64,000 bases of DNA from Escherichia phage VTCCBPA_211, in sequence record PP989838.1; one strand, written 5' to 3'. Below the pieces are notes generated by a model. The model worked only from the letters and a program-made list of their open reading frames with translations. It did no database searches and was not told where the DNA came from. Position numbers and translations under genes: made by a program. Shown one piece after another: positions 26,849-30,558 of the stretch (the first letter of the stretch is position 1; the number at the start of each line of letters is the position of its first letter).

Positions 26849-27382
26849 ATGAGTTTACTAGGAAGTATTGAACTGCACGATGTAATTGACAATGGCTATC
26901 TGAATGCGGAGCATAAATATGTTAACGCTGCTAGTGTGGATATCCGTATTGGTGATACTATCCTTGTTGAAGAACAGGCTGATGGCATCGTTGATATTGA
27001 TGCGAAAGAGAATCTTCAGTGGAAGGAAGTAAAGATTCCTGAAGAGGGTTTGGTTATCACTCCGGGTCAGTTCTTCTTGGCTCACTCCATGGAGGAGTTT
27101 AATCTTCCAGATAACATCTCAAGTCTGTTTGTCCTACGTTCATCTATGGCTCGTTGTGGTTTGAACCACCTCCACGCCGGGTGGGCAGACGCAGGGTTTA
27201 ACAGCAGTAAGCTGACATTTGAGTTCCATAACGTAACCAAGCATCATAGCTTACGAGTTCGTGCTGGTATGCGTGTTGGTCAGATGGTGATGTTTGAGCA
27301 CTCTCATGCAGGGGAACATTCCTATGCAGTGAAGGGTCGTTATAATAACTCTGAAGGTGTAGTTGCATCTAAAGGTGTGTAA
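26849..27382 (+). CDS. dcd: dCTP deaminase (dUTPase fold)
   Basis: VLRSSMARCGL and overall similarity to Dcd-family signature. Confidence 0.75.
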   Translation: MSLLGSIELHDVIDNGYLNAEHKYVNAASVDIRIGDTILVEEQADGIVDIDAKENLQWKEVKIPEEGLVITPGQFFLAHSMEEFNLPDNISSLFVLRSSMARCGLNHLHAGWADAGFNSSKLTFEFHNVTKHHSLRVRAGMRVGQMVMFEHSHAGEHSYAVKGRYNNSEGVVASKGV

Positions 27383-27589
27383 ATGACTGAAGAAGAGTTC
27401 CAAGAACTGAAAGGTTTGACTACCGAGGTTCAATTAAAAGCTATGACATTTGGTCGAGCATGTCATCGATTTGATACTTGTGATGAAAGCAGTAAAGAAG
27501 CTTGTAAGAGTTATATGGATAAGAAGCACCTTGAATGGGGTAAAGCTTCTAATGATCTTTATGACTACATGAAGGGTTTAGTAAAATGA
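27383..27589 (+). CDS. hypothetical small protein
   Basis: ATG overlaps upstream stop. Confidence 0.5.
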   Translation: MTEEEFQELKGLTTEVQLKAMTFGRACHRFDTCDESSKEACKSYMDKKHLEWGKASNDLYDYMKGLVK

Positions 27590-27783
27590 AAAAGTGGATT
27601 GTTCGTGTACATGATAACACGACTGGAGAGTTAGTAGCTGTAGATTTTGTTAATACTCGAGACCACGCCCGTAGGGTCAAAAACCAATACAAGTCTACTT
27701 TTAGACTCAATAAGGTTACAATAGGAAAAGCTTTCGTAAACAGTGAAGGTGCTTTTCTTTCCAATAGTAAGGTTTATTATTAA
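27586..27783 (+). CDS. small-protein paralog family B, member 1
   Basis: W.V...T.....F.TR.(E/H)AR..K..(K/Y) pattern, ends in YY. Confidence 0.55.
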   Translation: MKKWIVRVHDNTTGELVAVDFVNTRDHARRVKNQYKSTFRLNKVTIGKAFVNSEGAFLSNSKVYY

Positions 27784-27992
27784 TGAGACCAATCACTATG
27801 AGAAAATTTTGGTTAGCAAAGATTGAGTGGGCATCAGGTGGCATGACTATGACTGCACTACCCACTCGCCAACAAGCTCGAGATTTTAAAAAGACTATGC
27901 TTACTGGTGACGTGGTCAATAGTATCAGTATCCATAAGGCCAAGGAGTATTCTTCTGGTCGTGTTTATATCAGCGGAAAGGTGCATTACTAA
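27783..27992 (+). CDS. small-protein paralog family B, member 2
   Basis: PTRQQARDFKK; ends HY. Confidence 0.55.
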   Translation: MRPITMRKFWLAKIEWASGGMTMTALPTRQQARDFKKTMLTGDVVNSISIHKAKEYSSGRVYISGKVHY

Positions 27993-28201
27993 TGAAAAAG
28001 ATGTGGGCTATTCATGTTGTTTGGGATCTTGAGCAACACATGAGAAAAGATAGCATCAAATTGTTTGACACTCGCAAAGAGGCTCGTATTGCTAAGAAAC
28101 AGTTGAAGACTCTGGGCACAATAGTAAAAAGCGCTGACATACATCGCTGGTATGAAGGCCCTAACACTGGTTCTTTTATGTCTAAAGTAATTTACTACTG
28201 A
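27992..28201 (+). CDS. small-protein paralog family B, member 3
   Basis: DTRKEARIAKK; ends YY. Confidence 0.55.
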   Translation: MKKMWAIHVVWDLEQHMRKDSIKLFDTRKEARIAKKQLKTLGTIVKSADIHRWYEGPNTGSFMSKVIYY

Positions 28202-28273: not shown

Positions 28274-28603
28274 ATGTTAGATTTGAGTAAAGTGGCCCCG
28301 CCCACTGAAGAGATTACAAAATCCAAGGTGATGCAACAGTTTTATCATCGTGATATGCTTGGTCGCTTTATCAAGAATCGTGATGTTGTTGCTTGGTCTA
28401 TTGGTAATCAGGGGTATCTGTTGAAGGTTCTTCAGGTTACAGGTTCAACTGCTAAGCGAGTTAAGGTGTATGACCCTGAAATGGGGCGTTCTAAGTCAGT
28501 AGACCCACAGAACTGCATCGTAATTACCCAGCAGGTAATGGATAATATTGCACGTAACGTTGCTAACTCAGTTGAACTTGATGGAGAAAACCCAAATGCA
28601 TAA
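28274..28603 (+). CDS. hypothetical protein
   Basis: ORF; stop overlaps Dps-like start (ATGCATAA). Confidence 0.55.
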   Translation: MLDLSKVAPPTEEITKSKVMQQFYHRDMLGRFIKNRDVVAWSIGNQGYLLKVLQVTGSTAKRVKVYDPEMGRSKSVDPQNCIVITQQVMDNIARNVANSVELDGENPNA

Positions 28604-29159
28604 GAATGTCTTTGATTTACCTGAGATTGGTCGTGACAGTTATAGCATGTTAGACCGGTCCGACCTATCAATCTCTCGCCTTGAAACGATGCAAGGTATG
28701 ATTAGTGGAAACAGCCTAGAACACATCCTGAGCTGCTTACAAGCTAACATGGAACTCTTGCATATCAAAGCTAAAAACTACCACTGGAACGTCTCTGGTG
28801 CAGGATTTCAGGGTGTTCATGGTATGTTTGACGAGCTGGAAGATTACGCACGACAGGTAGGAGATCGTATTGCTGAACGTATGCGTTACCACTGTGTTAA
28901 AGTGGATGCTACAGCAGCTAACTACCTCTCTCATGCTTGGTTCTCAGAGGGTAATGCTGATCTAGACATGGACGGTATGCTCTCTGATATGTGCATGACC
29001 TTGATGTGTATTATTGAGAAGATGGATGAGTTTGATGGCGATTTAGCCACCTACCCTGTCGATCAGAGTATGCTTCAAGAAATTAATGAAGGTCTTGGCA
29101 AGTATTGCTACTTCGTCAAGAGCAACATGTCCCACTCAAGTGGTGATGTGTCTTACTAA
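28596..29159 (+). CDS. Dps/ferritin-like protein
   Basis: NYHWNVSGAGFQGVHGMFDELEDYA matches the Dps ferroxidase-site signature HWNV.G..F..LH..F.E. Confidence 0.7.
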   Translation: MHKNVFDLPEIGRDSYSMLDRSDLSISRLETMQGMISGNSLEHILSCLQANMELLHIKAKNYHWNVSGAGFQGVHGMFDELEDYARQVGDRIAERMRYHCVKVDATAANYLSHAWFSEGNADLDMDGMLSDMCMTLMCIIEKMDEFDGDLATYPVDQSMLQEINEGLGKYCYFVKSNMSHSSGDVSY

Positions 29160-29219
29160 AACCTCCGCCCTGTCTCCTAACCCGAGGTGGGGCGAACTTA
29201 TTTATAAGGATATAGATAT

Positions 29220-29399
29220 ATGTTATCAGCAATCGTATGGGGTATTTGGGCTATCTTTATTGGTGGTGGTATTTATTGGGCTTCTGGTAAGCTTATTGAA
29301 GAAACCCCTGATAAGAAAGGTGAGATTCAAACAGCATCAACTATCATGGTTATCGTAGCTGTTGTTATCCCATTCCTGCTTCACCTCCTGACTGCATAA
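29220..29399 (+). CDS. small two-TM membrane protein (59 aa)
   Basis: ATG 29220, TAA 29397-29399; two hydrophobic segments. Confidence 0.4.
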   Translation: MLSAIVWGIWAIFIGGGIYWASGKLIEETPDKKGEIQTASTIMVIVAVVIPFLLHLLTA

Positions 29400-29407
29400 G
29401 GATTTAC

Positions 29408-29680
29408 ATGACTAAAGTAATTAAGTTTTATAGTGATCAGTGTGCTCCATGTAAAGCAATGGCTCCTACCTTTGAGAAGGTTGTTAAGGAGTTTGATGTA
29501 GAAGTGGAAGAGATTAACATCCTTGAAGGTGATGGTCGTGAACAAGCTGTTAAGTATGGTGTACGAAGTATCCCTGCTTTCGTTGTACCTGACCGTAACA
29601 GTGGTGCACACTACAGCCTCTCTGGTATGCAGACCGAAGCAAACCTGAAAGCATTCTTAACTACTGCCCTAGGTGTTTGA
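29408..29680 (+). CDS. thioredoxin-like protein (CAPC active site)
   Basis: KVIKFYSDQCAPCKAMAP; thioredoxin-fold length (90 aa). Confidence 0.75.
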   Translation: MTKVIKFYSDQCAPCKAMAPTFEKVVKEFDVEVEEINILEGDGREQAVKYGVRSIPAFVVPDRNSGAHYSLSGMQTEANLKAFLTTALGV

Positions 29681-29886
29681 TTATGAAAAAATATTGGACG
29701 GTGGTATATTACCTCTACCAAGACCCGGCTATACCTGTTACAGAGCACTTTGCTACTCGTAAAGATGCTCGCCGTTTTAAGAAGGCTCTTAAGATGGCCC
29801 CAAAGATTTATAGTAAAGTAAGCTTACATAAATCAACATTGTCAGAGATGGGAACCTTAGTGGTTTATTATGTAAAAGAATATTAA
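29677..29886 (+). CDS. small-protein paralog family B, member 4
   Basis: ATRKDARRFKK; ends EY. Confidence 0.55.
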   Translation: MIMKKYWTVVYYLYQDPAIPVTEHFATRKDARRFKKALKMAPKIYSKVSLHKSTLSEMGTLVVYYVKEY

Positions 29887-29901: not shown

Positions 29902-30558
29902 ATGAATGAACAATTACAAGCAACATTAATCGAAGCTATGGGAAGTGATCGTAGCGTAGTAAACGCAGCTCGAGTTTCCTTTGGCGTAACCCGTGAAGGT
30001 GATTTAAATGAACGTGATGAACGTCTCATCAACTTCCTCGCAAGAGAGAAGCATGTTACTCCATTCCGACACCCACAAGTCAGTTTCCGATGCAAAGCAC
30101 CTATCGCAATTGCGAGACAGTTGGGCAAGCATCAGGTTGGATTCTCGTGGAACGAAATGTCCCGGCGGTATAAAGATGGAGCAGTTGAAGTCTTCATCCC
30201 TAAAGAGATTTTTGCGAGACCTTCGGACCTCCATGCAGGTTCAGGGGTTCAACTCATCGATGGAGAACGAGCTGAAGCGTTAATGTTGATTAATGATGCA
30301 TATGAAGCTTCTCTAGCAGCATATGACAAGTTGATTGAATTCATTGCACCAGAGCAAGCTCGATTTGTTCTTCCTCAGGGGATGATCACTGAGTGGGTAT
30401 GGACTGGTTCTTTGTATGGCTGGTTTGAGTTATGTCGTCAGCGACTCTCCTCTCACGCTCAATATGAAGTTCGAGTGTTTGCTAAATCTCTGGATGAAGA
30501 GATGGCTAAACTTTACCCAATCTCATGGGCAGCTCTGAAGAAAACTTTGGAGAATTAA
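29902..30558 (+). CDS. thyX: FAD-dependent thymidylate synthase ThyX homolog with variant signature (KHQ in place of RHR)
   Basis: Collinear with ThyX as I recall it (AARVSF, TPF.H, KAPI..ARQ, S.NE.S.RY, SHAQ); RHR position reads KHQ. Confidence 0.8.
   Translation: MNEQLQATLIEAMGSDRSVVNAARVSFGVTREGDLNERDERLINFLAREKHVTPFRHPQVSFRCKAPIAIARQLGKHQVGFSWNEMSRRYKDGAVEVFIPKEIFARPSDLHAGSGVQLIDGERAEALMLINDAYEASLAAYDKLIEFIAPEQARFVLPQGMITEWVWTGSLYGWFELCRQRLSSHAQYEVRVFAKSLDEEMAKLYPISWAALKKTLEN

Follow-up and report, generated by a model that had tools for sequence, protein, structure and literature searches.

A Dps-family mini-ferritin gene in the nucleotide-metabolism block of a Kuravirus coliphage

Organization of the locus

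The open reading frame examined here lies in a stretch of 64,000 nucleotides from Escherichia phage VTCCBPA_211 (the window), in a region sharing 93-97% nucleotide identity with Kuravirus (Gordonclarkvirinae) coliphages, a group of podophages whose C3 heads are prolate. As read directly from the sequence, it runs for 187 codons from an ATG at 28596 to a TAA at 29157-29159, and its ATG overlaps the stop codon of the upstream gp68-like ORF (ATGCATAA), an arrangement that is typical of translational coupling and that predicts such coupling for this gene pair. The encoded protein is 100% identical in amino acid sequence to phiEco32 gp67 (ABY52868.1), which has been annotated in GenBank since 2008 as "DNA-binding protein; member of the Dps family"; thus, the Dps assignment made in an earlier note on this DNA was correct but already known. 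phiEco32 and its Gordonclarkvirinae relatives (CDS67 in SU10) carry the same gene in the same place, between gp68 and the gp66, thioredoxin and ThyX genes, and the window differs from phiEco32 only in nearby features, such as an additional phrog_4939 ORF between thioredoxin and ThyX.

Table 1. Features at and around the Dps-family gene, with positions counted from the first nucleotide of the window.
Feature	Position	Strand	Basis or remark
dCTP deaminase, upstream member of the nucleotide-metabolism block	26849..27382	+	PF22769, 3.7e-34
gp68-like gene (phiEco32 gp68, phrog_10984), predicted to be translationally coupled to Dps	28274..28603	+	predicted SH3-like beta-barrel
GGAG Shine-Dalgarno / ribosome-binding site	28583..28586	+	9 nt 5' of the ATG; direct sequence reading
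Dps-family (mini-ferritin) gene, 187 aa	28596..29159	+	profile, PDB, fold and phiEco32 gp67 matches
Clade-specific N-terminal extension, residues 1-44	28596..28727	+	net charge -3; predicted helix 23-37
Segment with the ferroxidase-centre residues	28782..28877	+	codons read (H63 28782-84; W64 28785-87; H75 28818-20; D79 28830-32; D90 28863-65; E94 28875-77); alignment to 1dps; invariance in the clade
Terminator-like hairpin, 11-bp stem (7 G-C pairs) and T-rich tail	29166..29204	+	7 nt 3' of the Dps stop codon
59-aa hydrophobic small ORF (phiEco32 gp66, phrog_9296)	29220..29399	+	between Dps and thioredoxin
Thioredoxin	29408..29680	+	PF00085, 2.5e-13
ThyX flavin-dependent thymidylate synthase	29902..30558	+	PF02511, 1.8e-43

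The gene belongs to a co-directional block made up of primase/helicase, exonuclease, dCTP deaminase, three paralogous ORFs, the gp68-like gene, Dps, the 59-aa ORF, thioredoxin, a fourth paralogue and ThyX. It had been described as sitting next to thioredoxin and ThyX; both genes were found by Pfam and are indeed neighbors, but strict adjacency did not hold, as they lie 250-750 bp away with small ORFs in between. The hairpin downstream of Dps has stems that were invariant in six phages and a loop that differs in ECBP2, and it exceeded shuffled sequence in stability by only a modest margin (z = -1.5). It is the invariant stems and variable loop, and not the folding energy, that suggest that this element may be a terminator or an mRNA-stabilizing element.

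The gp68-like protein had no match in Pfam or NCBIfam, and a search with its predicted fold returned only generic SH3/KOW/PWWP/Tudor matches (E of at least 5e-3); residues H25-R26-D27, W41, Q87 and N91 are invariant among its homologues. Its gene lies immediately 5' of Dps in Privateer, GAP52, LAh_8, APT65 and metagenomic contigs, and the position between dCTP deaminase and Dps/NrdD is kept across several C3 podophage genera. One relative (L013) has the gp68-like gene followed directly by NrdD, without Dps, which indicates that gp68 is not strictly tied to Dps and, together with the generic fold matches, weakens the idea that it is an obligate Dps partner.

Other members of the block also drew our attention. 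The four paralogous ORFs of 65-69 aa (phrog_4939; 27586..27783, 27783..27992, 27992..28201 and 29677..29886) share the pattern K-x-W ... T-R-x-x-A-R-x-x-K ... Y; three stand in tandem 5' of gp68 and the fourth lies between thioredoxin and ThyX, where phiEco32 has no ORF. The primase/helicase gene, a single intact gene of 1791 nt in phiEco32, is split in the window (22387..24916) into ORFs of 416 aa (22387..23637) and 181 aa (24371..24916, a DnaB_C fragment), with an HNH/NUMOD4 homing-endonuclease ORF (23743..24273) between the halves. Because the 416 and 181 codons add up to the 597 of the intact phiEco32 gene, the split suggests an intron or the insertion of a homing endonuclease. The 475-aa ORF at 25412..26839 (phiEco32 gp73, 'hypothetical') matched the poly(A) polymerase / nucleotidyltransferase head domain only weakly and below threshold (E = 0.021).

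Family membership, predicted fold and ferroxidase centre

Profile searches placed the protein in the ferritin superfamily and, within it, among Dps proteins. Its sole Pfam match was PF00210 (Ferritin), at 31.1 bits against a gathering cutoff of 24.5, and it was assigned to phrog_3636 (2.6e-55). A single-sequence phmmer search of the PDB matched 59 chains, all but one of them Dps, and a profile built from the phage clade matched 55 chains, every one a Dps. Neither search of the PDB gave a genuine match to a classical ferritin or bacterioferritin; the chains named 'non-heme ferritin', 'putative bacterioferritin' or 'Dps,Bacterioferritin' proved to be Dps-sized proteins or a Dps fusion.

The AlphaFold2 model (106 sequences; mean pLDDT 89.7) has the Dps architecture, a four-helix bundle (A 41-65, B 71-98, C 125-146, D 154-176) with a short BC helix (107-112) in the long cross-over loop, plus an extra N-terminal helix (23-37) predicted with lower confidence. 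The fifth (E) helix of ferritins is absent from the model. With Foldseek, only Dps structures were retrieved from the PDB, among them B. anthracis Dlp-2 (1jig; rmsd 1.1 Å over 135 columns), M. smegmatis Dps2 and S. aureus Dps, at rmsd values of 1.1-1.5 Å. Neither its nearest relatives nor its fold, which has no E helix, places the protein with the 24-mer ferritins or bacterioferritins, and we regard its identity as a Dps as virtually certain. Against the NCBIfam Dps equivalog model NF006975, whose curated cutoff is 114 bits, the protein scored 34.5 bits over an alignment confined to residues 52-96; it should therefore not be presumed to function as E. coli Dps does. Dps-fold domains also occur in other settings in the BFVD library of viral structures: three uncultured Caudovirales entries (A0A6J7XDU5, A0A6J7WPK9 and A0A6J7WIS1) carry them in 'prohead protease' proteins of 333-763 aa, and others lie inside long phage proteins of 290-679 aa. 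These models suggest that some phages may target a Dps domain into the capsid.

The earlier note had pointed to a ferroxidase-site signature (NYHWNVSGAGFQGVHGMFDELEDYA), which corresponds to residues 61-85 and was found intact. In an ungapped alignment to E. coli Dps (1dps), residues 56-95 of the phage protein correspond to residues 44-83 of the chain, an offset of -12, so that H63, W64, H75, D79, D90 and E94 map onto H51, W52, H63, D67, D78 and E82. The literature gives H51, H63, D67, D78 and E82 of E. coli Dps as the ferroxidase ligands and W52 as the adjacent tryptophan, and the ligand numbering for E. coli and Listeria follows it. None of the six residues varied among 15 Kuravirus-like homologues with identities as low as 48%, nor did the ferroxidase residues vary among 12 phage Dps proteins that represent five host genera and include one from a Streptomyces phage; each of the ligands His, His, Asp and Glu was kept in 90 of 91 other Dps proteins. 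Thus, proper alignment left no ligand unaccounted for, and the reading of this segment as a ferroxidase site was upheld. The predicted inter-subunit ligand set (H63, H75 and D79 / D90 and E94, with W64) is complete and has the canonical spacing.

The bacterial Dps proteins compared (Dlp-2, 1jig; MsDps2, 2z90; B. subtilis MrgA, 2chp; S. aureus, 2d5k; Listeria, 1qgh; E. coli, 1dps) share with the phage protein the four-helix bundle with its BC helix, the identity and spacing of the ligands and the adjacent tryptophan. However, they are only 22-27% identical to it, and the phage protein is much more acidic and carries the 44-residue acidic N-terminal extension. Its clade also has substitutions that set it apart from most Dps proteins, such as D156 in place of threonine, and W115.

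E. coli Dps requires its lysine-rich N-terminal tail to bind DNA. The phage subunit has a pI of 4.7 and a net charge of -15, its C-terminal end is neutral, and its N-terminal extension is acidic, so that neither a Lys/Arg-rich tail nor a positive surface, as expected of a DNA-binding Dps, was found. Homologues outside Kuravirus have short N-terminal tails rich in K, R and P (GAP52, MIPTKPKSSSKSS; SE131, MLGARPKRPAPES; Privateer, MARDMIRSRPSLRRES), and such basic tails occur in the Grimontviridae homologues and in Aeromonas phage APT65. The comparison indicates that the Kuravirus branch has apparently exchanged the basic tail of related phage Dps proteins for the acidic extension, in which the motif S-[ILM]-x-R-[LM]-[ED]-x-M is conserved and R28 is invariant. 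The acidity of both the subunit and the extension makes the "DNA-binding" part of the annotation doubtful, and that label is probably wrong for the acidic Kuravirus variant.

Distribution, constraint and gene order in relatives

Dps-like genes had been called uncommon in phages. This is true overall, as tblastn matched only 167 of 50,697 phage records, but not within the phage's own lineage, where Dps is a core gene: 97 records matched at 80% identity or more, virtually all Gordonclarkvirinae carry the gene, and other podophages with prolate (C3) heads have more distant copies. Selection on the Dps core (residues 45-187) is strongly purifying, with dN/dS values of 0.03-0.04 (Nei-Gojobori, against ECBP2, Bas86 and Bas89). 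The first 44 residues change more quickly, though still under constraint, with a dN/dS of 0.18 obtained from SU10 only, synonymous sites being saturated against the other comparison phages.

This constraint on the extension also argues against translation from the downstream candidates M18, M32 and M35, which we rejected because the MH(N/K)N start and the extension are kept down to 48% identity. Published work on SU10 agrees: its orthologue, CDS67, was seen by mass spectrometry, with 35.8% of its sequence covered, and is entered at 21.2 kDa, the mass predicted for the full-length protein, and we conclude from these proteomic data that it is translated at full length. The same paper counts CDS67 as a middle gene, a class assigned from genome organization and similarity to phiEco32, and reports it in all five C3 phages compared.

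When the clade profile was run against a library of 1.84 billion proteins, 3394 relatives were found, just 7 of them at E <= 1e-30, and in the single-sequence search E. coli Dps was among the weakest PDB matches (E = 0.18). Both results rule out recent capture of the gene from the host; the Kuravirus proteins instead form an old, divergent, phage-specific branch of Dps. In the representative library, a protein of 1156 aa (P0032) matched profile positions 63-98, the ferroxidase segment, in 20 separate stretches; this is an unusual repeat protein or else an artefact.

The C3 podophage homologues (Salmonella 7-11/SE131, Proteus Privateer, Cronobacter GAP52 and Aeromonas LAh_8/APT65) are 30-45% identical to the Kuravirus protein and share with it the ligands, the gp68-like upstream partner and the block of replication and nucleotide-metabolism genes. 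They differ in being shorter (132-156 aa), in their basic tails and in having an NrdD or ATP-cone neighbor, whereas in Kuravirus the extension is long and acidic and NrdD is not a neighbor. In relatives, Dps is as a rule followed by the gene for the anaerobic ribonucleotide reductase NrdD or for an ATP-cone protein, one or the other adjoining Dps in GAP52, Privateer, LAh_8, SE131, APT65 and metagenomic contigs. Kuravirus, Grimontviridae, Lahexavirus and metagenomic relatives share the gene order dCTP deaminase, gp68-like, Dps, NrdD/ATP-cone, ThyX, thioredoxin, and we regard the NrdD neighborhood as ancestral. Neither NrdD nor NrdG is annotated in bases 1-51,500 of the phiEco32 record, and any link between Kuravirus Dps and oxygen-sensitive chemistry therefore rests on the relatives.

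Proposed role and alternative readings

Oxidative protection and the sequestration or supply of iron had been proposed as roles for this protein, and they are reasonable suggestions given its sequence. We favor the view, as moderately more probable than not, that the gene encodes a functional Dps-type mini-ferritin whose cage oxidizes Fe2+, stores Fe3+ and so suppresses Fenton damage. Twelve subunits would assemble into a hollow cage, two Fe2+ would bind at each two-fold interface and be oxidized, preferentially by H2O2, and the resulting Fe3+ would be kept inside. The cytoplasm would in this way be cleared of both Fenton reagents during phage DNA replication and during dNTP synthesis by the neighboring dCTP deaminase, thioredoxin and ThyX and, in relatives, by the oxygen-sensitive NrdD as well. 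Given the strong acidity of the subunit and the acidic extension that stands in place of the basic tail, the protein would probably protect by chemical means, through removal of iron and peroxide, and not by coating of DNA. Why a fast lytic phage would need to control iron or peroxide is not obvious. The gene bears on whether lytic phages manage the two during replication, and it belongs to the strongly constrained core of a group of E. coli phages that is abundant and relevant to therapy. Dps-like genes are also known from Lactobacillus plantarum myophages and from the gut 'Gratiaviridae' and 'Flandersviridae', where they lie near DNA-metabolism genes and where the authors propose a role in oxidative stress or iron; these belong to unrelated lineages with distant sequences and, as here, are known from annotation only. 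The literature that we searched contained no experimental study, biochemical or genetic, of any phage Dps.

A rather different function, implied by the database label 'DNA-binding protein', in which the cage attaches to DNA of the phage or to the nucleoid of the host, condenses DNA or rides with the particle and ferroxidase activity is secondary, would be in keeping with several observations on relatives. The paper on Privateer, which notes the Dps homologue and calls its function unverified, reports its detection by mass spectrometry in virions purified by CsCl step and equilibrium gradients, in a list that includes ten predicted virion-associated proteins, and this hints at a different or additional role there. 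Moreover, the short basic tails of the non-Kuravirus homologues resemble the DNA-binding tail of E. coli Dps, and the viral structure library holds Dps-fold domains fused to 'prohead protease' proteins. For the protein studied here, however, the acidic subunit and N-terminal extension and the neutral C-terminal end are the opposite of known DNA-binding tails. SU10 CDS67 was detected in a lysate prepared with PEG only, in which DNA polymerase and thioredoxin were also present, and gp67/Dps is missing from the structural-protein list of the SU10 cryo-EM study; a dense, iron-loaded cage could also co-band with phage in CsCl. We therefore consider a DNA-binding, DNA-condensing or virion role unlikely as the main function.

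Intact ferroxidase ligands and the repeated juxtaposition of Dps with NrdD/ATP-cone genes would also suit a cage that serves as an iron reservoir or donor for enzymes of dNTP synthesis, such as the [4Fe-4S] activase NrdG in relatives, or for host enzymes. Dps cages store only a few hundred iron atoms and have a better-established role as protectors than as providers of iron. In addition, Dps is strongly constrained in Kuravirus even though phiEco32 has no annotated NrdD or NrdG in the bases given above, and L013 keeps the gp68-like gene beside NrdD without a Dps. In our judgment iron donation is thus improbable as the primary function, and we retain detoxification of iron and peroxide as the preferred reading. 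As for the extension, its acidic helix could conceivably dock the cage on another component of the phage, be it the SH3-like gp68, the procapsid or the replication machinery, in which case the protein would act not as a general antioxidant but as a localized sink for iron and peroxide at the site of replication or packaging, or would be carried in the virion as reported for Privateer; we offer this as a speculation with a low chance of being right.

Many GenBank records give the gene yet another name. It is labeled 'integrase' in IME267, ES17, 172-1, EcoN5, IMEP8, XT32, PE006 and other Kuravirus/Suseptimavirus records, and nothing beyond these product names speaks for a recombinase. The sole Pfam match is Ferritin, no recombinase catalytic domain was found in Pfam or NCBIfam, and the fold obtained with AlphaFold2 and Foldseek is the Dps four-helix bundle. 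These results refute the integrase reading, to which we give practically no credence, and we conclude that the name is a propagated annotation error. To the existing Dps label the present analysis makes modest additions: the ligand-by-ligand confirmation of the ferroxidase centre, the charge argument, the clade-specific extension, the coupling to gp68, the ancestral NrdD neighborhood and the recognition of this mis-annotation. The last is of practical consequence in phage therapy, where screening for lysogeny genes could mistake strictly lytic Kuravirus phages for temperate ones on the strength of the 'integrase' label.
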